Shown here one piece after another: positions 3,130 to 18,991 of a stretch of 64,000 nucleotides of DNA. The notes under the pieces were generated by a model. It did no database searches. It was not told where the DNA came from and saw only the letters and a program-made list of their open reading frames with translations. The DNA comes from a virus. The first letter of the stretch is position 1. Each line of letters opens with the position of its first letter. The DNA lies in the IMG/VR virus record IMGVR_UViG_3300032163_000008, positions 1 to 64,000 of that record, one strand, 5' to 3'. A program made the position numbers and the translations under genes.

Positions 3130-3624
3130 ATGGCAACAGTAGAAGTGAACGTATCAGACATCAGTTTTGACAGGCATGAGTACATGGATGTCCTTGACAA
3201 CCTTGACGGTGAGAAGGTTCTGGAGTGGGTGCAGGACAATTTCAGCACCGAAGACATCTGTGAGGGCCTAGACACCTATAAGGTGCTAGAGGCCCTGAGC
3301 CTTGATACCAAGGACGTGCTAGATGCGCTTGAAGGCGCTAATGGCAGGCGAGACGAGATCAAGGCATGGATCGGTGAAGAGCTTGAGGTTGATACAGTTA
3401 ACCGCTTAATGGCGGGGTCTGCGCGACAAGCTGTCATAGCCCATGTGTTGAGCAAGGTAACACTGCTCGAGATCGGTCTGGCGCTAGTAGCGATGGCCAC
3501 TCCACCAGTGCCAGCAGTTGAGCAGGTGGAGCCCACTAAGCAGCATGCTGCGTTAGGGGCGGTAGCTGATGACCTGGTGACTATCCTCGATAATGCTGAG
3601 GAAGAGGTCCTAGTGTTGCGTTGA
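3130..3624 (+). CDS. acidic hypothetical early protein
   Basis: promoter motif and GAGGAGG RBS upstream. Confidence 0.8.
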   Translation: MATVEVNVSDISFDRHEYMDVLDNLDGEKVLEWVQDNFSTEDICEGLDTYKVLEALSLDTKDVLDALEGANGRRDEIKAWIGEELEVDTVNRLMAGSARQAVIAHVLSKVTLLEIGLALVAMATPPVPAVEQVEPTKQHAALGAVADDLVTILDNAEEEVLVLR

Positions 3625-3788
3625 TGTTGCCTCTTAAGTATCACTCCAGGTATGACATAGGTATAGACATGACAATAACAGCGCAAGCGCAAAGATGAAG
3701 AGGCAGCTACCCTTTGTGACAAATTGAAGATTTGTAATGTATTTTTTGAGTTCTAATAGAACTACTCATCAAACGCAAGGAGGTAATT

Positions 3789-3890
3789 ATGGATTGGCGA
3801 CTATTATTTTATATTATAGGCTTTCTCCCGTTAACCATTGTAGTGATTATGGCTTGTATGCCGGAGAATGATGGCAGCGTAGATCTTTAG
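3789..3890 (+). CDS. 33 aa membrane microprotein (MDWRLLFYIIGFLPLTIVVIMACMPENDGSVDL)
   Basis: promoter motif at 3735 and AAGGAGGT RBS; one hydrophobic segment; not in ORF track. Confidence 0.6.
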   Translation: MDWRLLFYIIGFLPLTIVVIMACMPENDGSVDL

Positions 3891-3899
3891 GAATACACG

Positions 3900-4280
3900 T
3901 CAAACATAAGTGGGGGCAACGATGAATAAGGAAATCGTAGTAGTGGCAGCTTTGGTTGTCTTCCCCATCTTTGATATGGGAAGCTTCACTACCTCCTTCA
4001 CTCCCTTGGAGTAGAGATAGGTGATTATAGCACCACGGAGCTCCACGATAATAGCGTTCTGTTTGCTAACCCAGAAGTCCTCTATTAGAACCGCACTGAT
4101 GTGAGAGGGTAGTAGAGGTATGAGCTTCCCGTATAGCTCGAACACTCTCTGGTATGGGTCTCTTCCGGAAGTCCTAATGGTGTACTTCTCGTGGGTTTGT
4201 GTCTGAGGATCCCAAATGAATATTCCTGTGCTGTTTGTACCCAAATCAAGACAAACAATTTTTTGGGGCAATAAAGACAT
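3900..4280 (-). CDS. RuvC/RNase H-fold nuclease-like protein, C-terminally short (possibly inactive or pseudogene)
   Basis: IVCLDLGTNSTG first strand, VLIED second acidic residue, ELRGAI helix; no C-terminal DxxD helix. Confidence 0.65.
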   Translation of the reverse strand: MSLLPQKIVCLDLGTNSTGIFIWDPQTQTHEKYTIRTSGRDPYQRVFELYGKLIPLLPSHISAVLIEDFWVSKQNAIIVELRGAIITYLYSKGVKEVVKLPISKMGKTTKAATTTISLFIVAPTYV

Positions 4281-4349
4281 ATCTTAATTGTCGCTCCCAA
4301 AGCAACAGAAAGTACTGAAATACACAAGAAATAGTATATGATAGACAAT

Positions 4350-5140
4350 AACAGCGTTGCAACGCTGCTTGTAGTTGGCAGACTTCACTGCCCTCTGGTC
4401 CTCTACTGCCAAACTAGTAGATTGAACTTGCGCCAAGGCCGGCAAGAGGGGTTCATCCATTCCCCTGATAAAATTGGGCCCGCTCTGGGACACTGAGACG
4501 TCGTCGGTCCGCTTCGTAATAGACCGTGTTTTTGCTCTAACACCGGGGGTGACCCCAACTACTGAGTGTTTGCATGGTCCCACTGACTCCTAGGCTAGGT
4601 GGGACCGAATAAACTTTTTGTCTGATAATTAAACCGTCAAGGTGGTACGGGCCGTTCTTCGGATATAAGTGCAAGTTTGCAAGCTGAGACAAAGATACGC
4701 GGAGTAGTGCGGTTTGCTTATCAAGAGTTTGTTTTTTCTAGCCACCTTGAGTGGCTTTTCCGGTTTGCTGGGACAGAATCTGTCAAAGTACCAAAAGGTT
4801 ATAGTTATAGTAGTAGATGTTATGGATTAGCAGCCTTTTCATAAAAGTGCGGCTACTGCCTGGGTAGATATGCCCTGGCCGTCCCCCGTGAAAGCACGCC
4901 TAAAGTCAGGACGTTAAGAAGGTGATGGAGGCAAGGTCATGCCGGAGAGATCCGACAACGATCGTTACCGATCGTTGGACTCGTTGAAAAAGTACGAGAC
5001 CGAAAGGTTCTGTGACCCCTTACTGAGTTTGGATCCCGCATAATCAGCGGGTCAGGCATCAGCGAGCGGGTCATACTATATGCATTACCCATGTCATCTA
5101 TTGCATCCATGACATGGGTTGCCTAGAGACCTAGTGCCGC
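4350..5140 (+). ncRNA. candidate large (~800 nt) structured non-coding RNA
   Basis: no credible ORF; dense hairpins such as agcgttgcaacgct, ggtcccac..gtgggacc, cgtg-aaag-cacg, caacgatcg..cgatcgttg, acc-GAAA-ggt, tgaccc..gggtca. Confidence 0.55.
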
Positions 5141-5276
5141 ATGTGCATCCAACCATATTTTGTAATGAATAGAAATTTTTTAATATAGTAATACTCATAC
5201 GTCACAAACAAACAAAAATAAGTTTGTGACCACTTTGGAGGAGGTGAGACGAGTGCAAAAAGAAAAGGAGTCTATT

Positions 5277-5654
5277 ATGGACAAAACAATTGAGCTAGTA
5301 CAAGAGAACGGTAAAGAAGTTTGCTATGCAAAGGTAACATCGGGTAAGCGCGAGGGCGCGATCATCCGTGTGTACTACATCCGAGCCAATGACGGAGTTG
5401 TCGTGGGCAAGGACATCCAGACTAAGAAGGTCATAGCTGTGGGCAAGGGTTCGATGAGTGAAGAGTTCAGAGCCCACTACAACTTGACAACTGGCCGTAA
5501 GGGTCAAAGCTACGACAGCATCCTTGCTGAGCTCGGCAAGGCAGTTGAAGCTGTGCAAGAGGAAGTACCTGAGGTTGTAGCTGAGCCAGAAATGGCTATG
5601 GCAGAAGCAAGCGTCGTCGCTCCTAAGAAAGCTACGCCACGCAAGCGTAAGTAA
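5277..5654 (+). CDS. KOW/SH3-like small protein, paralogue 1 of three
   Basis: AAGGAG RBS before ATG 5277; aligns by eye with the products at 9849-10130 and 11684-11980 (ENGK..Y..G..G..R.Y.IR.DG..G..IQ..SEEF..SYD.IL). Confidence 0.8.
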   Translation: MDKTIELVQENGKEVCYAKVTSGKREGAIIRVYYIRANDGVVVGKDIQTKKVIAVGKGSMSEEFRAHYNLTTGRKGQSYDSILAELGKAVEAVQEEVPEVVAEPEMAMAEASVVAPKKATPRKRK

Positions 5655-5683
5655 TTTATTTCCGCTAGGGTGTATGCCTCCAC

Positions 5684-5748
5684 GTCACCCTAGCATCCCC
5701 AATACGTCCAACCAAGTCACCCCTAGCATCCCCAATACGTCCAACCAA
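5684..5748. repeat. tandem duplication, 32/33 bp x2
   Basis: gtcaccc(c)tagcatccccaatacgtccaaccaa twice. Confidence 0.9.
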
Positions 5749-5999
5749 ATTTTATAATGAATGTAAATTATTTTATATAGTATTACCTATATAATAAGTA
5801 AATTATTATTATTGATCCTTGGAGGAGGTGATACAAGTGTCAGACAAGAAGCATGACATGACAGACATGTGCGGGTGGATGTATGCAGCAGGGTTCGAGC
5901 CATGCAACTTCGGTTGTGACGGCTGTCCGATCTATGATGCAATTGAGGAAGCGAAAGAGGCAGTGGAGACAGAAGAATAAAACGGTGGGAGGCACCAAG

Positions 6000-6473
6000 A
6001 TGACAAATAAGTATAGCATGCTCAACGAGCAAGGCCAGTATGTGGAAGTGACTAAAGAGGTGTTTGAAGCGGACACCAAGGCAAGGGAAGATAAGTTTGC
6101 TGCAGCGCTGGCGATCACACAACCTGATCCCGATAGTTTGCATAGAGCAGTTACCATGAGCAATCACAAGATCGAGGTATGGGCGCTACCATTCCACTTC
6201 GATGAGCCGTTCAAGGTAGGGTATGCGTACAGCATGCTGGACTGCATGAAGATGATAGTTAGGTTCGAGCAAGAGGCCTACGACTGCGAAGTGACCCTAG
6301 AAGAGTTATTCTTCTTCAAGCCTAGCAGTGTGGTAGAATACTACGGCAATATCGAGATAGCACTGAATGAGGAAGTGGTTAGCTTCATTGAGCGCGTCTC
6401 TGATAGGATCGTAGCAGCGATCAGTGTTGACTGGGATGAAACTGACACCTATGTAATGGTCAAGGAAGCCTAG
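6000..6473 (+). CDS. hypothetical early protein
   Basis: GGGAGG RBS before ATG 6000 (track start 5883 probably too long). Confidence 0.75.
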   Translation: MTNKYSMLNEQGQYVEVTKEVFEADTKAREDKFAAALAITQPDPDSLHRAVTMSNHKIEVWALPFHFDEPFKVGYAYSMLDCMKMIVRFEQEAYDCEVTLEELFFFKPSSVVEYYGNIEIALNEEVVSFIERVSDRIVAAISVDWDETDTYVMVKEA

Positions 6474-6587
6474 TCATGTGGGACGCGGATGCCAGGCATC
6501 CGCGTCCATCTATTTGAAATTTTTAATGAATGTAAATTATTTTATATAGTATTGTCATATATAATATAAAATTATATAAATTGAGTC

Positions 6588-6649
6588 ATGGAGGTGACAA
6601 TAATGGATCGGTATTTAAATGGAGGTGACAATAATGGATCGGTATTTAA
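6588..6649. repeat. tandem duplication, 31 bp x2, of an RBS-ATG unit
   Basis: atggaggtgacaataatggatcggtatttaa twice. Confidence 0.9.
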
Positions 6650-6658
6650 AAGGTGGAG

Positions 6659-6925
6659 ATGATGAACCTGAATGCGTACGATCAAGTCGAACTTGTGTCG
6701 TACGATCCAGAGATGTTCGTAGGGGTGGATGAGTACAGAGATTCGATCATAGAGATTCAGCCAGAAGGACATGCACACAAGTATGACTTCAATGAGTGGA
6801 TCAGCGATCGCGAGGGTGAGATTGCTCACTGGGAAAGCATGGAAGGTAACACCGAAGAGGATGAGTCCTTTATCAAGATGCTTAAGGGAGACCTTGAGAC
6901 GATGCTAGCTATGAAACAATTCTAA
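6659..6925 (+). CDS. acidic hypothetical early protein
   Basis: AAGGTGGAG RBS; downstream of promoter motif at 6524. Confidence 0.7.
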   Translation: MMNLNAYDQVELVSYDPEMFVGVDEYRDSIIEIQPEGHAHKYDFNEWISDREGEIAHWESMEGNTEEDESFIKMLKGDLETMLAMKQF

Positions 6926-6929
6926 GGAG

Positions 6930-7130
6930 ATGAATACTATGAGAAGTTTGCAAGAGCTACAGAAGGTGCCGTTTGCTAAGATGACGACAGAGGAAGAGTG
7001 TTTGTTTGTTCCTCCCGTCACGTCCAGGTTTGCACAGACCATGAATGAAGTTTGTAACAATGAAGTTTGTCATGAGGAAGATCACGAGGCCTACATGCAG
7101 TTTCTAAGTTTGGAGATGAGCCAGCTATGA
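6930..7130 (+). CDS. hypothetical protein
   Basis: operonic with neighbours. Confidence 0.6.
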   Translation: MNTMRSLQELQKVPFAKMTTEEECLFVPPVTSRFAQTMNEVCNNEVCHEEDHEAYMQFLSLEMSQL

Positions 7131-7411
7131 AGAGTTATATCATAATGAGCCAGTACCATGACTATGGGAACATCGAGACCTTCCTGAGGAGAGGGTCCTT
7201 TGCAACTGAGAAGGATCTTTTCAGAGACGTGTTCAAAGCTTCCCTGGATCAAGAGGATGAGCAGGGAAACATTATTGGAGAAGTGTTCAATAGGCTAGAG
7301 GGTGAGGAGCTCATGGATTACATCTATGAGACGCTCGTCGATCCAGACCATGAGTTTACGTTAACAGTCTTTGAAGAGGAAAGCTTGGAGCTTGTCCTAG
7401 AAAAGAACTAA
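7127..7411 (+). CDS. acidic hypothetical protein
   Basis: ATGA coupling; followed by 15-bp-stem hairpin at 7416-7459. Confidence 0.7.
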   Translation: MKSYIIMSQYHDYGNIETFLRRGSFATEKDLFRDVFKASLDQEDEQGNIIGEVFNRLEGEELMDYIYETLVDPDHEFTLTVFEEESLELVLEKN

Positions 7412-7615
7412 TTCCTTTGACATGACAGAGACAGAGACCTCCACCTCTGTCATGTCAAATCTCTTTACCACTGTGAGTCCAACTTCCTATACATGTGAGT
7501 CCAACTGTGAGAGATCACATATTTGAAATTTATAATGAATATATATTTTTTTATATAGATGAGTCATATAATAATTTTTTATTATAAATTGACTCACTGA
7601 GGAGGTGACAAGACG

Positions 7616-7822
7616 ATGGACAAGATACAAGCAGCAATTGACAGCAACGAGGATCTGCGCGAGGTTATGGCGTTTGTGCCAGTCAGCGACGCGGAGAGCT
7701 TCAACGACTGGGATCAAGCAGAAGGTTACGGTGTGTGTTTGCCACTGGTAACGGGTATAGTATGTGAGAAGGCTTTGGAGGAAGCTTACAAGGATCTAGT
7801 GCAGAGGTTTGAGAAGAGATAA
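7616..7822 (+). CDS. hypothetical early protein
   Basis: promoter motif at 7533, GAGGAGGTGA RBS. Confidence 0.75.
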   Translation: MDKIQAAIDSNEDLREVMAFVPVSDAESFNDWDQAEGYGVCLPLVTGIVCEKALEEAYKDLVQRFEKR

Positions 7823-7845
7823 AATAAAAGTGGGAGGCACTTAAT

Positions 7846-8439
7846 ATGAGACTAGACGACAGGTTCGTAATCAATGTCAATGCAGAGGATAGAGAAGTTT
7901 ATTGTGAGGATAGTGATAATTCAATGTCCAAGGGTGAGTATGTGGGGTATTGTGAAGATACATCAGGTCAGATGATAGGAGACGTCATCATCAGGTTCAA
8001 CGGTACTGAAGAGGGTTTGTATGACGTGGTAAGTCAGTATTGTGGTGATGAGGATCTGGAAACGGTTAAAGAGTTTGTTAGGGGGAAAGAGTTTGTGGAA
8101 GTGTCAGAGTTCAATGACTACGCCATATTAAGGATGTCAGTGAAGCTCCGAGATGCTTGGGAGCGGATAAGGGAAATAGAGACTAAGTGGGAAGCAGATC
8201 TGAGGATAGTGACCGAGAGGCACAACAAGGGTCTTACAGAGGAACAGAAGCTGAGGTTCTGGGCATATGTGTCTGACTTCTGCTTCAGTGGCAGATATGG
8301 TATAGGGAGTTACTACAGTGACTACGTCATGCTTAATACAAGTGACGGTCACGTGTGTGATGATGAGGATTGGTACTATGGGTACGAGGCTGATGTACTG
8401 AAGGTACTAGAGGATGCGGGCATAGAAGTAGTCAGCTAA
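7846..8439 (+). CDS. acidic hypothetical early protein
   Basis: GGGAGG RBS, 197 aa. Confidence 0.8.
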   Translation: MRLDDRFVINVNAEDREVYCEDSDNSMSKGEYVGYCEDTSGQMIGDVIIRFNGTEEGLYDVVSQYCGDEDLETVKEFVRGKEFVEVSEFNDYAILRMSVKLRDAWERIREIETKWEADLRIVTERHNKGLTEEQKLRFWAYVSDFCFSGRYGIGSYYSDYVMLNTSDGHVCDDEDWYYGYEADVLKVLEDAGIEVVS

Positions 8440-8597
8440 TACTGAAGGGTCCTTCTCTGGGTATGAGACAGAGAAGGGTCCGGGGGATGAACTTTAAGCG
8501 ACCACATATTTGAAATTTATAATGAATGTAAATTATTTTATATAGTAGGGTCATATATATTAAAAATATATAAATTGACTCATGTGGAGGTGAGACT

Positions 8598-8786
8598 ATG
8601 TACGACGATCAAGATTATGATGACGCGTTCGAAGAGAATCCAGAGTTCGCAGAAAGATACTATGCAGCACGGAATGCAGAACCGACACATCCATGTCCCC
8701 AGTGCGGAACTGAAAATGTGTTGAATGATGATGACGTCAGACGGGGTTACCGTTGTGATGCCTGTGCCGATGAGGCTGAGAGATAG
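8598..8786 (+). CDS. small Zn-ribbon protein
   Basis: CPQC..CDAC; promoter motif at 8520, GGAGGTGA RBS. Confidence 0.75.
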   Translation: MYDDQDYDDAFEENPEFAERYYAARNAEPTHPCPQCGTENVLNDDDVRRGYRCDACADEAER

Positions 8787-8845
8787 AACCTAAGGGTCCA
8801 GGGCCCGGGTCGAAACAAAAGTTTGTTAAAGGAGTGGAGGCACCT

Positions 8846-9178
8846 ATGAAGGATATAAAGTTTGTTAAGGCAGTGCAGTTTAAGGTTCACGTCTATGGTC
8901 AAAGCGAGGATGTGATCTTACATGTGACTGAGGATGATCCGATCGCTACGACTAATTACTGTGAGCCCAATGATGAGGGTGGTTACAACAGTGAGGAAGA
9001 TGAGTATGAGTGGGATAAGAATGACACGATCACTCACAGGTCAGAGACTGAGGGCAAGGACTGTGATGGCGTTACTAGGCATACGTACAGTCAAGACTAT
9101 ACGATCAGTACAGGCACGTGGGGTAAGATCTATCACGAGCGCTGCTATGATCAATATGCTGAGGCCGCAGGCTACTAA
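8846..9178 (+). CDS. acidic hypothetical early protein
   Basis: GTGGAGG RBS before ATG 8846. Confidence 0.7.
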   Translation: MKDIKFVKAVQFKVHVYGQSEDVILHVTEDDPIATTNYCEPNDEGGYNSEEDEYEWDKNDTITHRSETEGKDCDGVTRHTYSQDYTISTGTWGKIYHERCYDQYAEAAGY

Positions 9179-9421
9179 AGCGTCTTAAGATGTAACTGGG
9201 TCCCTGATCAGAGTGGGGATCCAGATTACATCCAACCATAAATTTTATTGTATTTATTTTTTATTAAATAGATGGACCCTTTGAGTATTCCCAAAGCATC
9301 CACCCATGAAAATTAATGAACAGATTTTATTTTAAATAGTAGTGTCTCGAAGGGTCCTGGGACCACAAGTTTGCTGAGTCCGCATCCCTGTTATTTTCGA
9401 TTTTAATAAGTTTGTTTAGAA

Positions 9422-9601
9422 GTTTGTATGATCTTATTAAAAAGTTTTTCTAATCGATTTTTGCAAGAAGAAACGTTTGTTTTAGTTGAAGTTTGTTTAA
9501 CTATGTTTGTTTGTATGATCTTATTAAAAAGTTTTTCTAATCGATTTTTGCAAGAAGAAACGTTTGTTTTAGTTGAAGTTTGTTTAACTATGTTTGTTTG
9601 T
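9422..9601. repeat. exact tandem duplication, 87 bp period
   Basis: units start at 9428 and 9515 (atgatcttattaaaaag...tgtttgtttgt). Confidence 0.9.
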
Positions 9602-9631
9602 TTTTATTTATTAATAAGTTTATTAATGAGG

Positions 9632-9814
9632 TTTGTCAGAGTCGTTTGTCACTCGTGTTTGTTGGTCAAGTTTGCTGGGGACGTTTGTCTGGGTGAGTTT
9701 GCTAGAGGAGTTTGCTCTGTAGGTTTGTCGCAGGAGTTTGCTGCATTAAGTTTTGTTGGACACAGTTTGCCCAGGGAGTTTGCTAGAGGAGTTTGTCAAG
9801 CGGTTTGTTAAAGG
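9632..9814 (+). repeat. 13-bp periodic array 1 (KTTTGYY + variable 6 nt)
   Basis: TTTG at 9632, 9645, 9658, 9671, 9684, 9698, 9711, 9724, 9737, 9752, 9766, 9779, 9792, 9804. Confidence 0.9.
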
Positions 9815-9850
9815 ATGCGAGCGGGTTTGTGGCCCGCTCGCATTTTGTTT
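9815..9850. terminator. hairpin/terminator between array 1 and paralogue 2
   Basis: atgcgagcggg-tttgtgg-cccgctcgcat followed by a T-run on the + strand. Confidence 0.75.
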
Positions 9851-10130
9851 ATTCTTCGGTTTGGAACTTGTCCATTATCGCGGAATAGTCCTTACTTGCA
9901 CGCGCACTTGCTGGCTTGGCTCCAACTGCTTCCAGGAACTCTGGACTGAAGTTAGACCTGCCGATGTACTTGACTCCAGCGATCTTCTTACCGTTCTGGA
10001 TTACTGATCCGCCGATGATGCCATCTTTACGGATGAAGTAGAACCTGAATAGCTCGCCTTTATAAGTGCCACCCACTGGACGCGTGTAGTAAGCGTCCTT
10101 TCCATTTTCGGACTGCTTTACTACTGACAT
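9849..10130 (-). CDS. KOW/SH3-like small protein, paralogue 2
   Basis: GTGGAGG RBS before ATG 10130; near-identical to 11684-11980. Confidence 0.85.
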   Translation of the reverse strand: MSVVKQSENGKDAYYTRPVGGTYKGELFRFYFIRKDGIIGGSVIQNGKKIAGVKYIGRSNFSPEFLEAVGAKPASARASKDYSAIMDKFQTEE

Positions 10131-10400
10131 ATTATGCCTCCACATATATTTATTATAATTTATTTATTTTAATAAATATTAATTTAAATTTATTATATTA
10201 TTAAATTATTAAAATAATATAATATTAATATTTATATATATAGCTAGTGTCAAAAATTTATATACATTAAAAAATATCGATATATACGAAATATTTAATG
10301 TATATAAATATTATTATATAGGGACCAGGTTCGAGAATCCAACCATAAAATCTAATGAACATAAATTTAATTAAATAGCAGGGTCCCGCCTGGATCGGAG

Positions 10401-10424
10401 CCCGGGACGAAGTCCGGGGTGGTC
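10401..10424. repeat. 24-bp dispersed repeat, copy 1 (copy 2 at 12262-12285)
   Basis: cccgggacgaagtccggggtggtc identical at both sites. Confidence 0.85.
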
Positions 10425-10516
10425 GAAGACTCCTAGAATTAATTTAAAATATTTAATGTATTAAAATTTAGAATTATAGTACTACACATAACTACACATT
10501 AACGGGAGGAACCAAA

Positions 10517-10669
10517 ATGAGTAGAGAGCACTTAGAAGAGCAGTACAAGATCAAGTTAAGGATTCTCGAACAACTGAGGGTATTCGTGAATGCAGAGGAT
10601 GATCTAGTAAAGTTGGCACGGATCGAACAAGAAATCAATTCGTACATAGGGGGGAAGCACAATGGATGA
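10517..10669 (+). CDS. 50 aa hypothetical protein
   Basis: promoter motif at 10454, GGGAGG RBS; MSREHLEEQYK... Confidence 0.65.
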   Translation: MSREHLEEQYKIKLRILEQLRVFVNAEDDLVKLARIEQEINSYIGGKHNG

Positions 10670-10817
10670 TGATGTAATAAAGATCGTAGAAGAAGCTCAC
10701 AGGGAGTGGGAGCAGTTCAGTAAGGAATATGATCGCAACATAAAACCTAACATTACGGTACCATTCGTAATGGATTTCGGTACAATAGCGATCGAGTTAG
10801 AGTATTCGAGGAGTTAA
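10662..10817 (+). CDS. 51 aa hypothetical protein
   Basis: overlaps upstream stop; MDDDVIKIVEE... Confidence 0.55.
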   Translation: MDDDVIKIVEEAHREWEQFSKEYDRNIKPNITVPFVMDFGTIAIELEYSRS

Positions 10818-10892
10818 GTAAGGAAAAGATAGAGTATAGTAGTAGGCATACAACCGTATTAGGAATAACAAAGTACTAATACGTCACCTCAT

Positions 10893-10949
10893 GATCGGTA
10901 GGAGGTTCCCTCCCTCCCCATTCCTCCTACCGATCTTCTTTCTTTCCTT
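10893..10949 (+). terminator. intrinsic terminator with C-rich loop
   Basis: gatcggtaggagg...cctcctaccgatc followed by a T-rich tail. Confidence 0.7.
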
Positions 10950-10982
10950 ACATAGTATTATATAATTACGGAGGCGATACAA

Positions 10983-11144
10983 ATGAAAGATTACTTTAAG
11001 TGGCTGTTCGAGGATGCGATACCAAAGATGATGATCTTCTTGGGTAACACGCTCGTGTATATCATCAAATTAATATTCGCGTTCGCGATCGGGTGGATGA
11101 TAGGAGCTGTTCTCTTTGGAGGTAACCATGATCAAGAGAATTGA
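10983..11144 (+). CDS. 53 aa membrane protein
   Basis: GGAGG RBS, TATAATTA at 10961; hydrophobic core. Confidence 0.6.
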   Translation: MKDYFKWLFEDAIPKMMIFLGNTLVYIIKLIFAFAIGWMIGAVLFGGNHDQEN

Positions 11145-11301
11145 GTCGGCTGTCGAGAACTACTTGCGAGCGAAAAGAGAGAATCCTAACTTCAAGCAGT
11201 ATCGTCCTAGCGTTCAACTCACTGCAAAGGACAAAGCTCAGAAGAGGAACAACGCAAAACAGATCTTCCGCAAAGAATTAGAGGAAGAATGGCACGCTTA
11301 A
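11128..11301 (+). CDS. basic hypothetical protein
   Basis: GGAGGT RBS before ATG 11128. Confidence 0.65.
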   Translation: MIKRIESAVENYLRAKRENPNFKQYRPSVQLTAKDKAQKRNNAKQIFRKELEEEWHA

Positions 11302-11390
11302 CCGGGAATTTTCCCCTGGATGAAGTTTGTTTGCTATAGTTGATAGTACAGATCGAAGTTTGCTATCAAAATCGTTTCTAGGTGATGGGT

Positions 11391-11648
11391 TTTGTCAGGT
11401 GTTTGCCTGAGATTTTGTTTCTCTGGGATTTTGCTATGAAATTTGTCATAGGAGTTTGTTGATCACTTTTGTCAGACTGTTTTGTCAGGTGAGTTTGTTA
11501 GATTATTTTGTCAGGTCAGTTTGTTGGACTATTTTGCTTATCGGGTTTGTTCGGGTGGTTTGTAAAACTCTTTTGCCACTGAGGTTTGTGGGATCAGTTT
11601 GTCCAGAGAGTTTGCTTGGGGGTTTGCTAGAGGAGTTTGTTAAAAAAC
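11391..11648 (+). repeat. 13-bp periodic array 2 (KTTTGYY + variable 6 nt)
   Basis: TTTG every 13 bp at 11442, 11455, 11468, 11481, 11494, 11507, 11520, 11533, 11546, 11559, 11572, 11585, 11598, 11611, then 11623 and 11636; looser units from 11391. Confidence 0.92.
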
Positions 11649-11649
11649 T

Positions 11650-11690
11650 GGGGACAAGTTTGTTAGACTTGTCCCCTTTGTTTTTATTCT
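11650..11690. terminator. bidirectional hairpin/terminator between array 2 and paralogue 3
   Basis: ggggacaagt-ttgttag-acttgtcccc, preceded by an A-run and followed by a T-run. Confidence 0.75.
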
Positions 11691-11980
11691 ATTTCTTCAG
11701 CAGGTTTCTCGAACTTGCTTAAGATATCGTCGTAAGACTTTGTACTACGTGCAGTTGCTGGCTTGGCTCCGACAGCTTTTAGAAATTCTTCAGAGAAGTT
11801 CGATCTTCCGATGTACTTGACTCCTGGTAACTTCTTACCATCTTGTATAACCGACCCACCGATAATCCCATCCTTGCGGATGAAGTAGAATCTGAATAGA
11901 TCACCTTTATACGTACCACCCTCTGGCCGCGTGTAGTACGCGTCCTTTCCGTTCTCGGACTGCGTTACTACTTCACTCAT
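11684..11980 (-). CDS. KOW/SH3-like small protein, paralogue 3
   Basis: GTGGAGG RBS before ATG 11980; near-identical to paralogue 2. Confidence 0.85.
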   Translation of the reverse strand: MSEVVTQSENGKDAYYTRPEGGTYKGDLFRFYFIRKDGIIGGSVIQDGKKLPGVKYIGRSNFSEEFLKAVGAKPATARSTKSYDDILSKFEKPAEEIE

Positions 11981-12631
11981 GTTATGCCTCCACATATTTA
12001 TTATAATTTACTTATTATTAAATATTTAATTTAGATTTATTATATAATTAAATTATTAAAATTATATAATATTAAATATTTATAAATATATCTAGGAAGT
12101 GACAAATCAATACATTACAAAATATGAGTCAATTAACTTGAGACATATTGATTATTTATAATGTATTGATATTATTATAAATAGAGAGTCCACCCATAGA
12201 GTCCAATGTATAGAATTGAAATCATATAGGGGATTCATATACCCCAAAAAGTGGTTACGTGCCCGGGACGAAGTCCGGGGTGGTCACGTAGTGACTAAGG
12301 TCAACGGGTAATCACATATACCCCAAAAAATGGGTATATGTCGGGTCGAAGGAAAAAAGTAGCGATGGCGTACCGGGTGGTCGCGTAGCGACTCCTGGAT
12401 CGGTGACAATTAAGATATGAACACAAAGAAAGGAAAGGTGGTGATGGTATAGGTGAGAGAATTTGAAGAAGAGTCTACGTTCTACAACGGCGTAGCTTAA
12501 GTCAGCATAGTAGCCCTGCTACTACATCATGAAGTGCTGATAGTCAGAAACAGTAAAGTACAATTTCCAATATAATATAGAGGTACATGCAGAACTCCAG
12601 GGTTCCGCTAAAATCATTACAGGGAGACACC

Positions 12632-13693
12632 ATGCAAAACAGAGTGTTAGCGCTTGAAGAGGTTATATGGGAAATTACCAGTAAGTGCAACAATGGGTGC
12701 AGTTACTGTGGAAGTGCTGCGTATTTGAATCAAGCAGAAGATGATACATGGAAGAGGATCATTGAGAACATCATTGCTATGAAGACCATTAAAGAGGTTA
12801 ACATAAGTGGTGGTGATCCTCTACTAGTAGACATGGACACCCATTACACAATCACAGCAATGCTCAAACAAGAGGGCATCAAAGCAAAGATCATAATCAA
12901 TCCAATTAGCTTGCAGACAACCCAGAATGTTGATGCAGAGGAAATCCTTCGCATGTACGACTGGATAGGAGTAAGTGTAAATAATATCAGGGAGTATAAC
13001 AATTACAAGGTCTATCTAAAAGACTTTGAGAACGTCACACTGATAACAAATATCAATGTTAGCAACTACCACATGCTGGATGCAATCGCAGCAGAACTAC
13101 CCAAAGACAGGATCTGGACCATACAGTTCACAATAGCTGATAATAACAATGCTATCTACAGAGATGAGAGCTTGGCGGCACTGGTAAGGGTAAAGCTACA
13201 TGCAGCTATAACAAATGGACTGAAGATAGTATTTGGAGACAATTGCAATAAGGCTTTGTGTGGAGCAGGTTCAAGAAGTGTGGGTATAACTTTTGACGGA
13301 GTAGTACTTCCATGTTTGAGTATGAGGAGTTGGTGGACAGAAGACGAAATACATTTGTGGAGCATGGATGAAAGTCACAGTCTAAATCATAGAGCACTCT
13401 CAAGTATTTGGAGAGATAGCTTTGATGGCTATAGGTTTGAAGAATTTAAGTGTTGTAAAGATGCGTGTGATAATAGGATACTAGAGGTTCAACCTGCCTT
13501 TATCAAAAGAGATATAGGAGAAAGAACTGGACCGTATGCACCAGTAGATTGGCCAGAGCCTAATTGGCCTCCAAGGAACAATCAGGTAATGATGTATGGA
13601 GTAACAACGGGTCCGGTAATGGTATACGGAGTAAAGGATAGTTGGAGTTCAGGGGTATCTTACACAGGAGCGACAGGAGAACCACCACAGTGA
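12632..13693 (+). CDS. radical SAM enzyme, splicease (PlpX)-like, with C-terminal XYG repeats
   Basis: VIWEITSKCNNGCSYCGS (CxxxCxxC), SGGDPL, CGAG..GITFDG..LPC auxiliary-cluster motif; tail VMMYGV..VMVYGV. Confidence 0.85.
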   Translation: MQNRVLALEEVIWEITSKCNNGCSYCGSAAYLNQAEDDTWKRIIENIIAMKTIKEVNISGGDPLLVDMDTHYTITAMLKQEGIKAKIIINPISLQTTQNVDAEEILRMYDWIGVSVNNIREYNNYKVYLKDFENVTLITNINVSNYHMLDAIAAELPKDRIWTIQFTIADNNNAIYRDESLAALVRVKLHAAITNGLKIVFGDNCNKALCGAGSRSVGITFDGVVLPCLSMRSWWTEDEIHLWSMDESHSLNHRALSSIWRDSFDGYRFEEFKCCKDACDNRILEVQPAFIKRDIGERTGPYAPVDWPEPNWPPRNNQVMMYGVTTGPVMVYGVKDSWSSGVSYTGATGEPPQ

Positions 13694-13941
13694 TATTAAG
13701 TGTTAAACAGAAGAGAGTGTTAAAAGAAAGAGTAGCAGAGAAGTTCCCTAATGCGGAACTGCTACGTATAAGATCGGTACAGAAAGCATATACTGATAGT
13801 AAGGTAAAGATAATCCTGCTTGAAGCAGGTAAGGAACAGACACATTACTTAGACTTAGCTTATCTCAGAGATGAGAAGGGTAATGGTGTACTGAAGAAAA
13901 AAGGAGGCAGAGATGTCAACACTAGCAGTAGAAGTATGTAG
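13690..13941 (+). CDS. basic hypothetical protein
   Basis: GTGA coupling to the radical SAM stop; AGGAG RBS. Confidence 0.6.
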   Translation: MILSVKQKRVLKERVAEKFPNAELLRIRSVQKAYTDSKVKIILLEAGKEQTHYLDLAYLRDEKGNGVLKKKGGRDVNTSSRSM

Positions 13942-15013
13942 CGTAGATAAGATAGAGCCGATTGAGAAAGCAGATAGCTTAGAGCTTCTGTACGTCAAGG
14001 GTTGGTGCTGTGTAGCACAGAAAGATGCCTTCAAAGTAGGAGATCTGTGCGTGTACTTTCCAATAGACAGCATCCTCACAGAAGAACTAGAGAACCGTAT
14101 CTTCGGGCTTGAGTCTAAGATCAGACTAGAGAAGCATCGCATTAGAACAATAAAGCTTCGTGGACAGATCAGCCAAGGGCTGGTAACTAAGTTTGATACA
14201 CTGGGCATTACTCCAAGAAAGCTTGGAGACGACCTTACTAAAGAACTTGGTGTAACTAAGCATGAGCCACCCCTAAGAACAGGACCTCAGTCTAACATCA
14301 AGCAGGCATCAAAGAAGCAGGTTAATCCTCTATTCCGTAAGTACACAGACATAGAGAACTTCAAGAACCATGTCACGGTATTTGAAGAAGGTGAGCAGGT
14401 ATCAATAACTGAGAAGGTACATGGTAGTAATGTCAGATTCGCATATCTGCCAACTGCTCCATCTACACTGTGGAAGAAGATACTGAAGTTCATTGGGATG
14501 CTGCCAGCATACGAAATATGCATAGGTAGTCATAACGTACAACTCCAGGATAAAGGTAAGAACACAAAGACCTTTCACGGTGGTAACATCTATAGAGAGA
14601 TGTTCGACAAATACGAGATAGAGCAGTACCTGGCTCCGGGCTGGGCATTCTATGGAGAAGTCTATGGAAGCTCTGTACAGGGCGGGTATATGTATGGATG
14701 CAAAGAAGGTGAGCGTAAACTCTGCTTATTCGATATTATGGTAGATGGGGTGTGGATGGATGCTCCTGACTTTCAGGTATTCTGTAGAACTCATGGACTA
14801 CCAATGGTACCAGAACTCTATAGAGGACCTTTCAATGCTGAAGCTGCTAAAGCTCTGACTGCTGGTAACTCAGTAATAGCTCCTACACAGAAGGTCAGAG
14901 AAGGCGTGGTCATTAAACCTTTGAAGGAAGAACACTGCCGTATAGGGCGTAAGGTGCTAAAGCTGATCAGTGATGAGTATCTCCTAGTAAAGGGGAATAC
15001 AGATTTCCACTAA
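13913..15013 (+). CDS. RNA ligase, DRB0094/Rnl2-like
   Basis: N-terminal IEPIEKADSLE..GDLCVYFPIDS, motif I TEKVHGSN, FYGEVYG, LFDI, REGVVIKP, LKLIS. Confidence 0.9.
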   Translation: MSTLAVEVCSVDKIEPIEKADSLELLYVKGWCCVAQKDAFKVGDLCVYFPIDSILTEELENRIFGLESKIRLEKHRIRTIKLRGQISQGLVTKFDTLGITPRKLGDDLTKELGVTKHEPPLRTGPQSNIKQASKKQVNPLFRKYTDIENFKNHVTVFEEGEQVSITEKVHGSNVRFAYLPTAPSTLWKKILKFIGMLPAYEICIGSHNVQLQDKGKNTKTFHGGNIYREMFDKYEIEQYLAPGWAFYGEVYGSSVQGGYMYGCKEGERKLCLFDIMVDGVWMDAPDFQVFCRTHGLPMVPELYRGPFNAEAAKALTAGNSVIAPTQKVREGVVIKPLKEEHCRIGRKVLKLISDEYLLVKGNTDFH

Positions 15014-15189
15014 GCCCAACTATAACGGTCCTCACAGTGACTTCCATGACAAGTTCTGGGCTAACTACATATATAGGTCTACCTTTGGTCAGCATGTAGC
15101 AGTGAGTTCAGAAGCTGTATACATAGGTAGAGCAATTAGTGTAGCGCTCGCTGATAATTATGATAGCCAAGGAAAGCAGGAGGACGAAT

Positions 15190-15471
15190 ATGTTAGTAAT
15201 AGATAAGCACGCGTATGGGAATCATTGTGGGGATGTAATCAACACAGAAGATGATGTATTGGTAGAAGATATCGACGTAGATATGATGGTAATCTTCACA
15301 CCAGGAAATGTGACTGCAAAGGGTCTAGTAAAGATCCATGGTATTACGTGTCACACATTTACACTTGAAGAGCACAGTGAGGCAGTACTTAAGACATTGC
15401 GCACTAAAGTAGCACCAGTAGTACCTACAGGTAGTATTCTTGCTTGCAACGACAAACAGATAGTAGTATAG
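15190..15471 (+). CDS. hypothetical protein
   Basis: AGGAGG RBS before ATG 15190. Confidence 0.65.
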   Translation: MLVIDKHAYGNHCGDVINTEDDVLVEDIDVDMMVIFTPGNVTAKGLVKIHGITCHTFTLEEHSEAVLKTLRTKVAPVVPTGSILACNDKQIVV

Positions 15472-15472
15472 T

Positions 15473-15661
15473 ATGTGGGTTCCAGTAGAAGAGAGATTGC
15501 CAGTACAGACGGGATACTACAACTGTAAGTGTATCCTAGAAGATAGCGATCCTCTTCCTGAGCCCCGTTCCGCGATAGAAACAATCCTCAGCATTTACTT
15601 TGCTAATGGGTCTTTCGCGTACAACCCAGACACAACAACAATCATAGCCTGGCAGGAATAG
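15473..15661 (+). CDS. DUF551-like small phage protein
   Basis: WVPVEERLP start, IIAWQE end. Confidence 0.7.
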   Translation: MWVPVEERLPVQTGYYNCKCILEDSDPLPEPRSAIETILSIYFANGSFAYNPDTTTIIAWQE

Positions 15662-16255
15662 ATGGCTTCATTCGGTATAGGTGGGATGTTCACTAGTGTT
15701 ACTAAAGGGGTAGCGGCTAATCCCATATATCATGAAGGCGAGGGTCCTGGAGCAGGTAGGTCTCTTCCAGAGTTCCACTTGGGTCAAAATGTGTACAACT
15801 GGATAAGAGCCACCCAAGGTGCTCCATTCGTGTTGGAGTTTAGGAAGCGTAGTGATGGGGTCATTAAGGCTATTAGGTGTAAGTCACTACTGCATCAAGG
15901 TCTCTCAGGACATGGTAGAAGGTATAACGCAGCTGCTAAGAACCTTATAACTGTATTTGATATTGGTGCTGGTGGATGGAGATCTATACCTATAGAAGGC
16001 ATCATCTATATGTCAATGCGAGGTGAACACTTGCCTTTCGTAGATCCTAACGCTCCTGTGCATACGTTGGATGCTGAAGAAGAGAGGTATAAGACAGGGG
16101 ACATACTAACACAAGAAGAGAAAGACTTCTTCGCAGCTGGGATCGATTATGGAGAGGCTGATGACGTAGGTGAGATAGACTTCGCTGACAGTGCACAAGT
16201 AAGTGACCTTAGTGAGTACAAAGGCATAAAGAACTTTAACTCTCCCTTCCTATAG
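15662..16255 (+). CDS. WYL-like/DUF2693 SH3-barrel protein with acidic tail
   Basis: FVLEFRKRSDG..ITVFDIGAGGWRSIPIEGI. Confidence 0.6.
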   Translation: MASFGIGGMFTSVTKGVAANPIYHEGEGPGAGRSLPEFHLGQNVYNWIRATQGAPFVLEFRKRSDGVIKAIRCKSLLHQGLSGHGRRYNAAAKNLITVFDIGAGGWRSIPIEGIIYMSMRGEHLPFVDPNAPVHTLDAEEERYKTGDILTQEEKDFFAAGIDYGEADDVGEIDFADSAQVSDLSEYKGIKNFNSPFL

Positions 16256-16952
16256 AGGCTGCACCCAGCTCAAATCGAGGTCGCCATTTAGGGGGGCTGT
16301 AATGAGGTCGGGAACTGGGCATGATTACGTAGGCTGTAAGAAACACGTCTTATAATAACCCAGTCTTACGATTAAATGTCGATTAAATTGTCTGTGTTAT
16401 ATTTGTAGCAGTATTCCACCCCCGTATAAACCCCCCAGTAATCCTCAGTGGTTCTACAATGAGTGCCATCACTATTCCCTACCGATTAAATTGTCTGTGT
16501 CTTATATCCTATTGTCTTTGTATGAGTATTGATTGTGGCCTTGGTATGCATTGCACCTCTGTGTATGATGAGCGTTGGTTAGGATGAGGGTAATGATACA
16601 TGAGTTAGACATTCGTGGTGTACGAGCCTCCAGGTCGAGAAAACCCCTTTTCCACCCTATAGGAGTTTTAAGTAGGAGCTTTTTCACGCAGAAAAATTTT
16701 CACCAAATCTGTTTGCCGGTCGAGGGTCCAGTTAATGAGTGTCATAGTGTGGTGTTTACGCTAAAAAACCTAGGAACCCCACTTAATCCCAGGGAAAAAC
16801 GGCCGCAGAAAATTTTAGGTTAAAACGGTTTTGGAGTTAAAACGGCTGACGACGCCCTGCGTTAATTCCATCTTTGTAGTCTTTCAGCGGCCAATTGGGG
16901 TTGCTGTGTCGTGCATGGTCTTACCACTTTTAGCATGCACTGTGTTCTAGCA

Positions 16953-17180
16953 TTACATCCTGTTAATAACTACTCGCCTGGGCTTGCCCTTTTTGGCCTT
17001 ATACGCGTCTAAGCGGTCTTCGGCGCTGGGAGTTGCCTTGAGTTTGCTCCCACTCCGAAGGGGACCCTCTACCTCTACGTCATTGGGAGCAGGTATGTCA
17101 TCGCCTGCTCTGTGATTGTTGGCATCATAACTACTCAGCTTAAAGGCTTTAACCATGTCTTCAAAATCTCTGGCGTACAT
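16953..17180 (-). CDS. putative internal head protein
   Basis: GAGGA RBS before ATG 17180; MVKA motif. Confidence 0.6.
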   Translation of the reverse strand: MYARDFEDMVKAFKLSSYDANNHRAGDDIPAPNDVEVEGPLRSGSKLKATPSAEDRLDAYKAKKGKPRRVVINRM

Positions 17181-17181
17181 A

Positions 17182-17703
17182 TTAGTCCTCTTTCTTAAGC
17201 AGATGGCCTCTGCGTTTACTCGCATCGATGATCTCTACTTCTTTTTTAGTGCGTTTAACTTCTACGGGAGCAATGACCTGTTTGGTGCGATCCTTGTTCC
17301 AGATCGGTATAAAGAACTTCTTCTGTTTCTGAGCAGCAGCGGGTTCATCCGGCTTACGTATCCACTCACTACCAGTGCCTTTGATCTTAGCAGGATCACT
17401 GCCGAAGCTGCCAGTACTAAGCATATACGCTTTGGCGAAGTTCTCGGCGAAGTCCGCCCATAGCTGCCTGTACAGGGGATCCAAGTTGTAACTCTTATTC
17501 AAATAATCTTGGTTCTCTAGGACGATGCCAGCAAAGATCTCCGTGACAAATCCTGGGTCGGCAAACCCGGTAAAGCTCTTGTTGAGTTCGTCATAGAAGT
17601 ACACCTCTCTGCCCGCGCTGATATCAGCGAGTAGGGGTTCAACACAGCCCTTATAAAGCTCTGTCATTCTCGGATCTCTGAGGTAATCGCTGTAGTTATC
17701 CAT
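17182..17703 (-). CDS. putative internal head protein
   Basis: LYKG, LNKS, FAKA motifs; operonic. Confidence 0.7.
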   Translation of the reverse strand: MDNYSDYLRDPRMTELYKGCVEPLLADISAGREVYFYDELNKSFTGFADPGFVTEIFAGIVLENQDYLNKSYNLDPLYRQLWADFAENFAKAYMLSTGSFGSDPAKIKGTGSEWIRKPDEPAAAQKQKKFFIPIWNKDRTKQVIAPVEVKRTKKEVEIIDASKRRGHLLKKED

Positions 17704-18104
17704 TATTTTTCTGGGTACTTCAGAGGTTGTATGCTGAGGACGTTGTCACCCTTTTTAACCAGCTCATTATGCAGCTGTGCATGATGATTAGCTTTGGCGT
17801 GTTGGTGCCGGGCCATGTTTATATGTGCATGCATATAGTTATCGGCTTTGGCTTGGGCGTGATGATCGGCCTGATCTTCCCAACTTGCATTGGGATTACT
17901 CTTATCCTTGGGTATATCCAGAGCTTGACCCGACTTCTTGGCATAGTCTTCGGCTCCGTACATCCAGGTGTGAGCATTGTGTGCGTGACCCAGTGCTCTG
18001 TGATAGTGATGCTGCTTCTCATGCTCACGGCTCTGAGCCATGTGGTCATTCGCTTGTTTCGTATGATCTCTGTATTGTTGAAACGGTGTCATTTGCTTTT
18101 CCAT
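17703..18104 (-). CDS. His-rich protein (putative virion-internal)
   Basis: very high His content; TATAATTA at 18123-18130 upstream on the - strand. Confidence 0.7.
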   Translation of the reverse strand: MEKQMTPFQQYRDHTKQANDHMAQSREHEKQHHYHRALGHAHNAHTWMYGAEDYAKKSGQALDIPKDKSNPNASWEDQADHHAQAKADNYMHAHINMARHQHAKANHHAQLHNELVKKGDNVLSIQPLKYPEK

Positions 18105-18131
18105 GTTGTACCTTCTCTTTCCTAATTATAC

Positions 18132-18359
18132 CTAATTGGGCTGTCCATATTCTCGAAACACCTTAAGGTTCTGTCCTTCGATGTTATGGCTCCTATTTAT
18201 ATGGGCCTTGCCCTGAAGTGGTTTTACTTCGGCATTAGGATCGGGGCTGCCTTCAGCCTTAGCCTTTTTTTGCTTGGCTTTGATCCCTGGGCCCAACTCA
18301 TTGATGTGTATGTCGTCAAACTTATAAGCTTTTAGGAGGTCTACGAATGAGTTGAGCAT
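18132..18359 (-). CDS. putative internal head protein
   Basis: LLKA motif; coupled to upstream gene. Confidence 0.65.
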   Translation of the reverse strand: MLNSFVDLLKAYKFDDIHINELGPGIKAKQKKAKAEGSPDPNAEVKPLQGKAHINRSHNIEGQNLKVFREYGQPN

Positions 18360-18991
18360 TAGTTTTGACTCCTACCCTTGCCATAAGTCTTGAAGTCACT
18401 GACATCGTGTTTAAGTGCTGGCTTGTATACAACCTTGGTTTGATCAGGCTTCAAATGAGGGGGTTCGGTGTTTTGTACCCTGGCATTAGGAATCTTTGTC
18501 TCTTTGTCTTCATTGGTGCTATCAAAGAGCTTGCCTCGGGCATAAGCATCACCCTTGGGTACAAAGCTCTTTCTTTCTTCACTGCTATAGGTATTCTTGG
18601 GCCAGCGCTTCTTTGAAGGCGGCTCAGGAGTCTTGGTGCCATTAACTGCATCCTTGATTTGACGGTTAGCATCTCTGCGGTCTCTTCTGAATTGACGATT
18701 CCTAGGACTGATGAACTCATCAAAGACGACAGGCGGATCCTGCATGACATAGGCCTTATTAAGAGGTAGGCCCGGCAGAGCTTTATGGAGTCTAGCACTA
18801 TTGCCTAGACTGGGGTCTCTCCTAGTATTTATTGCTTCACTAGTACCCTTGGCTTGATGGCTCAGGTACTTGGCATAGAGTTGCGTCGAGTTCAGCTGTT
18901 TAGGCATAGGCGTGATTCGGGGCTGACCCATGCCGGTACTTCCACCCATGAGAAGAGCCTTAGTTAGTAGAACAGGGATATCTTTTGACAT
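18359..18991 (-). CDS. putative internal head protein, low complexity
   Basis: TATAATTT just upstream; LTKA, LHKA, LNKA motifs. Confidence 0.7.
   Translation of the reverse strand: MSKDIPVLLTKALLMGGSTGMGQPRITPMPKQLNSTQLYAKYLSHQAKGTSEAINTRRDPSLGNSARLHKALPGLPLNKAYVMQDPPVVFDEFISPRNRQFRRDRRDANRQIKDAVNGTKTPEPPSKKRWPKNTYSSEERKSFVPKGDAYARGKLFDSTNEDKETKIPNARVQNTEPPHLKPDQTKVVYKPALKHDVSDFKTYGKGRSQN

Follow-up and report, generated by a model that had tools for sequence, protein, structure and literature searches.

An uncultured sediment phage, distantly related to SPO1 of Bacillus, carries on one strand of its early region an excess of the word GTTTG, and in two places the word is stacked every 13 bases into arrays of 14 and 17 units, whose core and spacing have been kept by selection. 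The DNA in question (hereafter the window) is the first 64 kb of the 79,204-base IMG/VR virus record IMGVR_UViG_3300032163_000008; CheckV gives this record a completeness of 48%, and the genome-wide absences reported below cover this part of the genome. Both arrays belong to a duplicated module, which an earlier note, made from the letters of the window, had put forward as a candidate new system. As to their function, we tentatively favour the possibility that the arrays are transcribed into + strand repeat RNAs, which would offer a lattice of GUUUGY words to a protein also binding early messenger RNAs (mRNAs); a lattice on double-stranded DNA has to be weighed against it, together with several less likely explanations.

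The two arrays and the region-wide word

In the first array, TTTGY starts at 9632, 9645, 9658, 9671, 9684, 9698, 9711, 9724, 9737, 9752, 9766, 9779, 9792 and 9804, i.e., at intervals of 13, 13, 13, 13, 14, 13, 13, 13, 15, 14, 13, 13 and 12 bases, which bears out the 14 units counted in the earlier note. The second array had been counted there as 16 units from 11442; the spacing was confirmed, with fourteen consecutive intervals of exactly 13 and a 12 on either side, but one more unit at 11430 raises the count to 17, the starts running from 11430 to 11636. When both arrays were pooled, the interval was 13 in 23 cases out of 29, and 12, 14 or 15 in the rest. All 31 units contain TTTG without change; position 5 is a pyrimidine in 31/31 and position 6 in 29/31, and the base 5' of the motif is G in 23 of the 31. 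The spacers are purine-biased, with a consensus of about TTTGYYAGRGGAG and a mean pairwise identity of 0.34–0.36, and the + strand of the arrays is rich in G and T, C accounting for 11–13%. Since the chance of finding TTTGY at a given position is about 1.8e-3, as calculated from base frequencies, a chance origin of a 14-unit phased run can be excluded. No other phased TTTGY run of at least three units was found on either strand of the 79,204-base record, and a generic periodicity scan of the record (any 4-mer, periods of 9–30, at least 8 units) returned these two arrays only. Coding repeats were ruled out, since a 13-base unit is not divisible by 3 and the open reading frame (ORF) at 9428–9811 has no ribosome site; curvature by phased A-tracts is unlikely with a 13-base period, which is off the helical repeat, and the word does not fit the TTNTTT pause motif of NusG.

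The aligned modules share the order array, hairpin, convergent gene (93 or 98 aa), AT-rich block and GC-rich element, as the earlier note had proposed, the last element being 25 bases long. A partial third copy of this element was also seen near 12369–12395. Comparison of one copy with the other gave an identity of 54/56 (96%) for the TTTG core and 11/14 for array position 5, against 55/105 (52%) for the spacers, 54/93 (58%) for codon position 3 of the adjacent gene and 19/37 for the terminator. The motif is judged to be under selection because TTTG was kept while the spacers diverged like silent codon positions, and the 13-base phase because only 6 of 29 intervals differ from 13 though the spacers are near saturation; the spacers themselves appear to have drifted at the neutral rate. 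The same figures uphold the earlier claim of a selected spacing rather than recent slippage. The module comparison also points to a second constrained element: the leaders of the two paralogous genes (10131–10245 and 11981–12095, ~115 nt each) are 90% identical, against 58% at silent sites and far above the neutral level, so that the A/T leader is probably a regulatory one.

The least probable of all the explanations considered is a decayed, functionless tandem repeat, that is, a 13-base unit amplified by slippage and then drifted. When IMG/VR and 185,579 species genomes were searched for five phased TTTGY or GTTTGY units, the public viral and cellular contigs among the matches listed carried mostly plain tandem repeats, as this explanation would have it, and the spacers of the two arrays keep a faint consensus. 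On the other hand, drift would not spare four bases in 31/31 units at a spacer identity of 52%, and would not enrich the same word, with its pyrimidine, over 12 kb on one strand.

Looser clusters of GTTTGY stand ahead of both arrays, at 9370–9600 and 11326–11430, and part of the first is contained in a tandem repeat with an 87-base unit. A sediment contig from a second study omits exactly 87 bases, 9421 to 9509, and thus has one repeat copy fewer, so that the copy number of this repeat is polymorphic in nature; the arrays themselves are identical in the second study.

The word is not confined to the arrays. In a count that left out the arrays and their flanks, and compared the early region with 66 kb of late DNA and with the expectation of a Markov model, GTTTG was the most over-represented 5-mer of the early + strand (42 occurrences vs. 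20.6 expected, z 4.7) and, of all 5-mers, showed the largest excess in early over late DNA (4.7-fold). By contrast, no enrichment was observed on the early − strand (8 vs. 8.2 expected) or in the 66 kb of late DNA (50 vs. 53.2 expected). As in the arrays, the word is followed by C or T in 34 of the 42 scattered copies (p 6e-7), which occur in all three reading frames and also between genes. In the small ORF at 6939–7130 the eight words far exceed chance, suggesting that the constraint acts there on nucleotides inside a coding sequence. The arrays are thus the dense end of a strand-specific word system extending through the early region; this enrichment is new beyond the earlier note, in which it had not been seen in full. 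A stretch of ~800 GC-rich bases directly upstream of the third paralogue described below (4340–5150), with no credible ORF and no Rfam match, contains five GTTTGY words on the + strand (four GTTTGC, one GTTTGT) and could be a large non-coding RNA.

Transcription context and genome setting

The promoter-like motif TAATGWAY-N13-WATAG occurs 12 times in exact form; every copy lies on the + strand, between 3071 and 12159, and the remaining 67 kb of the record contain none. These copies stand between small genes and stem-loops, and the region looks like an early, host-takeover region with a cassette layout. A similar layout is known from the PeSL cassettes of T4-type phages (PMC2839356), which likewise string together promoters, small genes and stem-loops and use a single promoter motif over and over; those, however, are promoter-terminator modules with no phased arrays of a 5-base word, and the comparison appears to account for the cassette layout, not for the lattice. 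The early motif is unlike the standard sigma-70/sigma-A promoter, and a phage-specific sigma factor or RNA polymerase is therefore possible. A scan of IMG/VR for the early promoter word gave no match, and tRNA and Rfam searches returned nothing relevant.

Array 1 begins 300 bases downstream of the exact promoter motif at 9314, and no ORF with a ribosome-binding site was found between them. The earlier note had placed two early promoter motifs upstream of this array; the one at 9314 is exact, but that at 9246 is a degenerate copy only. The + strand terminator it had placed after array 1 was confirmed at 9812–9846, and a second one was found after array 2, at 11650–11676, which also scores on the − strand; both are strong on the + strand. 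Since array 1 lies between a promoter of its own and a terminator, and no credible gene is found there, it would give rise to a non-coding repeat RNA of ~500 nt running from promoter 9314 to terminator 9846, a fair inference which the earlier note had also drawn. Array 2 is differently placed: its region begins 25 bases past the stop of the last ORF of a four-gene operon (11301), with a weak hairpin only in between, and it is best described as the 3' untranslated region of this operon. The last of the four ORFs is very basic, with an isoelectric point (pI) of 10.0.

The stems of the two terminators differ between the modules; instead, GTTTGT at the apex is retained in both, and a further TTTGT is found in the T-run of both at the same distances, 22–23 and 18. 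The array RNAs fold no better than shuffled sequences (z 0.02 and 0.95), and therefore their words would be accessible; the − strand of the arrays also folds no better than shuffled sequence. The − strand paralogue genes are preceded by a variant motif ending in CTAG and then by the conserved A/U leader. Coordinates are collected in Table 1.

Table 1. Features of the duplicated module and related elements of the early region (window coordinates; promoters and terminators are predictions).
Feature	Position	Strand	Remarks
Third paralogue	5253–5651	+	133 aa, long form with acidic linker and basic tail; no lattice
Small ORF, 63 aa	6939–7130	+	190 bases with 8 GTTTG words, every frame represented
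Degenerate early promoter copy	9246–9271	+	ends in TTAAATAG; not exact TAATGWAY-N13-WATAG
Exact early promoter motif	9314–9339	+	1 of 12 exact copies; would drive array-1 RNA
Tandem repeat, AT-rich	9422–9621	+	87-base unit, 2.3 copies; irregularly spaced GTTTGT words
Array 1	9632–9816	+	14 TTTGYY units, 13-base lattice
Terminator hairpin	9812–9846	+	16 pairs, then T-run; apex GTTTGTG; shared with convergent gene
Paralogue gene	9849–10130	−	93 aa, pI 9.5; ATG at 10130 behind GGAGG site
A/T leader of 93-aa paralogue gene	10131–10245	−	almost pure A/T; 90% identical between modules
Variant promoter, TAATGTAT-N13-ACTAG	10244–10269	−	TTGACA hexamer within spacer; would serve 93-aa gene
GC-rich element, 25 bases	10400–10424	+	small hairpin; identical in both modules; downstream of + promoter 10353
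Operon	10517–11301	+	four small ORFs (50, 51, 53, 57 aa); promoter 10454; no family match
Loose cluster	11326–11429	+	7 TTTGY words, ahead of array 2
Array 2	11430–11648	+	17 TTTGYY units
Terminator hairpin	11650–11676	both	apex GTTTGTT; scores as terminator on both strands
Paralogue gene	11684–11980	−	98 aa; 81% identical to 93-aa paralogue
A/T leader of 98-aa gene	11981–12117	−	conserved; includes variant promoter 12092–12117
Variant promoter, TAATGTAT-N13-CCTAG	12092–12117	−	would serve 98-aa gene
GC-rich element, second copy	12261–12285	+	downstream of + promoter 12159

The phage itself is an orphan, distant member of the SPO1-like myoviruses, given the low identities of its major capsid protein (33816–35204), which are 35–39% to the capsid proteins of SPO1-like Bacillus phages and at most 42%, over a full-length match, to any IMG/VR relative. 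Two sediment metagenomes, obtained in separate studies, contain the stretch almost without change, and the same proteins are also recorded, in a protein database, on a contig of 171,862 bases. The first larger genes past the early region, at 12587–13693 and 13913–15013, encode a radical-SAM/SPASM protein and an RNA ligase with an OB domain (PF21189 + PF09414), and a NAMPT-type nicotinamide phosphoribosyltransferase is encoded at 22072–23532.

The neighbouring protein family

The genes converging on the arrays encode two small basic paralogues, and the third, longer member lies upstream in the early region. The 5' leader of the third gene contains a 9-base inverted repeat, GTCACAAAC...GTTTGTGAC, at 5201–5231, which includes GTTTGTG and may act as a site of autoregulation or as a hairpin stabilising the 5' end; on the + strand around this gene CAAAC occurs only twice, both times in this repeat. 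The family was searched for by exhaustive HMMER on 1.8 billion representative proteins and by a word-indexed search of 5.8 billion, and beyond the three paralogues it has only three members, P0003, P0004 and P0006, all metagenomic; longer or fused forms were searched for and none was found. No homologue was detected in 50,697 phage records, nor in the IMG/VR scans and in ten related large records. Pfam (E up to 1), PHROGs and PADLOC gave no match either for the paralogues or for the four small ORFs of the operon.

The earlier note had described the gene as KOW-like. Neither paralogue matches the Pfam KOW profile (PF00467) at E up to 1, and a sequence profile search of the PDB with the paralogue returned nothing below E 0.19. 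An AlphaFold model built from six sequences, with a predicted local distance difference test (pLDDT) score of 80.7, shows a five-stranded small barrel followed by two helices; an earlier fold from two sequences was poor (pLDDT 43), and the rows obtained with ESM Atlas, weak and KOW-like only, were built on the poor model. Foldseek found nothing at E <= 1e-3 with the paralogue model, and an exhaustive structural aligner placed the KOW domains of NusG and Spt5 first (Z 5.5–5.0, root-mean-square deviation 1.5–1.9, 45–50 residues), where a Z below 8, by the aligner's own warning, may mean only a common arrangement. Thus of the KOW label a weak structural match (Z 5.5) stands, but not a Pfam KOW match, and the paralogues can be modelled, weakly, as SH3/KOW-like small barrels. 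The predicted five-stranded barrel would be what they have in common with the NusG/Spt5 KOW domains and with other SH3-like barrels (Sac7d, Sm/Hfq, Rof); unlike NusG/Spt5, they have no Pfam KOW match and no NGN domain, and they carry two extra C-terminal helices. The invariant residues of the basic paralogues include Tyr, Phe and Arg.

What may read the lattice

If the arrays are read as + strand RNA, GTTTGY would be written in the sense direction through the early transcripts and would be stacked, twice, as a 13-nt lattice inside + strand RNAs. The array RNAs would be unstructured scaffolds on which a single-strand RNA-binding protein could align, one protomer per 13 nt, each gripping a GUUUGY, and they might serve as a sink or timer of high capacity, acting on a factor also bound to the scattered GUUUGY words of early mRNAs. 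Such a factor could control the stability or the translation of early mRNAs, or promote the transition out of early expression. Among candidate readers the basic SH3/KOW-like paralogues, whose genes lie tail-to-tail with the arrays, come first to mind, and a host protein would be equally possible. Several lines of evidence allowed us to rank this + strand RNA reading first: over 12 kb the word keeps to the transcribed strand; promoter and terminator frame both arrays; the terminator apex retains the word despite a changed stem; the array RNA is predicted to be unstructured; and VIPR, in which protomers align one per short RNA repeat, provides a precedent (10.64898/2026.04.26.720920, 10.64898/2026.04.26.720927).

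Among known RNAs, the arrays resemble the sponge RNAs CsrB/RsmZ in having their own promoter and terminator and ~15–30 short words, and in the proposed titration of an mRNA-binding protein; they differ in that the word is GUUUGY and not GGA, is not displayed in hairpin loops, is set on a strict 13-nt lattice and is encoded by a phage. A cmscan search of positions 1–20000 with Rfam (E up to 1) gave no CsrB/RsmY/RsmZ-type match, and one noise match elsewhere. The repeats of type III toxin-antitoxin systems (ToxIN-like) were tried and rejected, since the unit here is 13 nt and unstructured, not structured and of ~34–45 nt, and the gene is convergent, whereas those repeats precede a toxin endoribonuclease gene that has their own orientation; no PADLOC model matched the neighbouring proteins. 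The arrays could be assigned to no known RNA or repeat family among those tested.

No related phage examined carries such arrays. The region 9240–12390 had no DNA match in phage records, and the periodicity scan of related genomes that the earlier note had suggested did not extend its proposal to relatives: no TTTGY array was found in ten large, distantly SPO1-like IMG/VR records, and no phased array of any word in two complete relatives. The exception, among the matches listed in the search for five phased units mentioned above, is an unrelated phage fragment, L006 (IMGVR_UViG_3300030328_003898), with arrays at 395–4350. Here six consecutive intergenic gaps each hold 8–14 TTTTTGTY units, mostly 13 bases apart and on one strand, and each array lies between the terminator hairpin of one gene and a promoter-like conserved box of the next, GTATATAATAC. 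No homologue of the small paralogue protein was found in L006. The shared core and period may reflect a shared kind of reader, or a coincidence. Nearly all small genes of L006 end in GGDE. A bolder form of the RNA reading, unlikely in our estimate, would take L006 as a second instance of a phage ribonucleoprotein system, in which SH3-like protomers or a host protein polymerise on the GUUUGY lattice and tag early transcripts.

Several observations weigh against the + strand RNA reading. Strict phasing is commoner among DNA iteron or centromere arrays than among the sponge RNAs known so far, and the L006 arrays, by their position from terminator to promoter, suit a DNA reading at least as well. 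The fold match of the paralogues is weak (Z 5.5), and RNA binding by them has no sequence-family support. The earlier note had linked array and gene, and in both modules they are indeed adjacent; however, the two pairs go back to one duplication event and are not independent, so that the link is no more than suggestive, and arrays are absent beside two homologous genes, that of the third paralogue and that of L003, the sole outside homologue whose DNA was examined; such an absence is part of what the earlier note had itself named as a refutation of its proposal. Both public sequencing runs carrying this DNA are DNA runs from sediment metagenomes, and no RNA run is listed among them. Moreover, three GTTTGY words are antisense to the − strand ORF at 3900–4280, i.e., the word tracks the genome strand and not the sense strand of each gene; a read-through + transcript from promoter 3735 could account for these.

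Closely behind the + strand RNA reading, doubtful taken by itself but nearly as likely, ranks a double-stranded DNA iteron lattice, in which a phage protein, possibly an SH3-like paralogue, would bind GTTTGY every 13 bp and build a superhelical filament; on duplex DNA this spacing turns each site ~86 degrees from the previous one. Such a lattice could serve in origin function or replication activation, as a centromere, as a roadblock or insulator between convergent units, or as a terminal-repeat or injection signal. The exact phase and the 14–17 direct repeats speak for it, as do the AT-rich 87-base repeats and the near-pure A/T blocks adjoining the arrays, a setting also known from iteron origins. 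The weak Foldseek rows, which include the DNA-kinking barrel proteins Sac7d and Sso7d, and the position of the L006 arrays between terminator and promoter point the same way. Similar periods are found in tubC (12 bp), parC (11 bp) and the phi29 p6 complex (contacts every 12 bp). Like parC of R1, tubC of pBtoxis, origin iterons and phi29 p6, the arrays are direct repeats in the 11–13 bp range beside the gene of a small candidate binding protein, and would be coated cooperatively and superhelically. They differ from parC and tubC in their period of 13 and the convergent gene, and from all these systems in the word scattered one-way over 12 kb and the position inside transcription units; furthermore, the predicted paralogue fold is neither ribbon-helix-helix nor winged helix, and no motor or initiator was found in the 79 kb.

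The same reading is weakened by the scattered copies, which share their orientation over 12 kb, something a duplex-binding protein does not need, and by the arrays lying exactly between promoter or operon and terminator. No turn of the GC skew is seen at the arrays, known initiators are much larger than the adjacent protein, and no recognisable initiator was found with Pfam and PHROGs among the paralogues and the four small ORFs. The centromere option, also raised in the earlier note, lost ground, as no partition motor (Tubulin or ParA, AAA_31) matched in the record; the ParM model had no match in the record, but none in control genomes either, and is uninformative. A comparison in favour of DNA is offered by T5, where untranslated repeat regions thought to bind protein are conserved at the inner border of the terminal repeat, in the takeover part expressed first (10.1101/866236); these blocks, however, mix inverted repeats, palindromes and DnaA boxes and are not a lattice of one word (10.1101/866236).

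A polar signal on single-stranded DNA is highly unlikely. It could be a Chi-like word taming the end-processing nuclease of the host, or a priming site. In the priming version TTTG-Y-Y would be the template of an RCAAA primer begun with a purine, and the last base would be cryptic, as at the primase sites of T7 and T4. Strict strand orientation with a region-wide excess is the classic Chi-type signature, and an invariant part of 5 bases plus a pyrimidine fits a primer template; but both functions could do without a 13-base lattice, whose phase was nevertheless kept, late DNA (66 kb) shows no enrichment of the word, and no primase was seen in the window region examined.

Less likely still is that the array acts on the − strand, as a Rho-type back-up terminator keeping the paralogue transcript out of the + strand units. 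Read on this strand, the array is unstructured, C-rich and G-poor, with a CAAAC-YC block every 13 nt, and directly follows an intrinsic terminator, weak in module 1 and good in module 2. Rho covers ~13 nt per subunit, and its loading is not known to need an invariant CAAA word. The composition of the − strand RNA (28–34% C vs. 11–13% G), the near absence of structure (−22 kcal/mol over 185 nt, −19 kcal/mol over 223 nt) and the L006 arrays, which also lie directly behind terminators of − strand genes, would fit Rho. What does not fit is a TTTG conserved at 96% with no known need for it in Rho loading, the scattered words in + strand genes, where − strand transcription is not known, and the − strand version of L006, which is A-rich and C-poor.

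Of lower probability again, though above that of the decayed repeat, is a guide-type repeat RNA, in which TTTGYY would be the handle for an SH3-like protomer and the 7–8 variable bases of each unit would jointly specify a target. A short conserved word does alternate with variable bases over 14–17 units that are predicted to be transcribed and end in a conserved hairpin, and gapped codes exist in phages (VIPR, 10.64898/2026.04.26.720920). Like the VIPR vrRNAs and TIGR, the arrays are tandem units of a conserved word and variable bases, and VIPR has one protomer per unit, a helical filament and a structured tail. VIPR, however, has 9–16 YNNGG units with a period of 5 and GGY, where the arrays have a 13-nt TTTGYY unit, and its protein is a RAMP (RRM core, G-loop) whereas the neighbour of the arrays models as an SH3/KOW-like barrel (10.64898/2026.04.26.720920). 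The spacers, moreover, diverge at the neutral rate and share a purine-rich consensus, and three units are identical; the arrays do not change in the second sediment study; and among the nearby proteins none resembling RAMP or Nop was noticed, the adjacent one being a small barrel. In the 79 kb of the phage itself, no gapped match on either strand, with the target period allowed to run from the segment length up to 7 bases more, did better than shuffled unit order, and a three-spacer scan of IMG/VR gave nothing. The two tests thus gave no sign of a processed-guide function, and the earlier suggestion of a precursor of short processed RNAs found no backing.

So far the arrays are known from one phage lineage, which is a weakness of the case. 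Whichever protein reads it, the array is a ready-made affinity bait with 14–17 sites. The host-takeover regions of large virulent phages are mostly unexplained, and a selected five-base word offers a testable handle on its reader. If the reader binds RNA, the arrays would be a phage sponge or filament RNA of a new design and would give a view of how early messages are marked; should the ribonucleoprotein system proposed above hold, the word would be a private code marking early RNAs for timed shut-off, protection or localisation. If the reader binds DNA, it would represent a new small-barrel iteron-binding family, and the arrays the site of a new nucleoprotein structure in SPO1-like phages.

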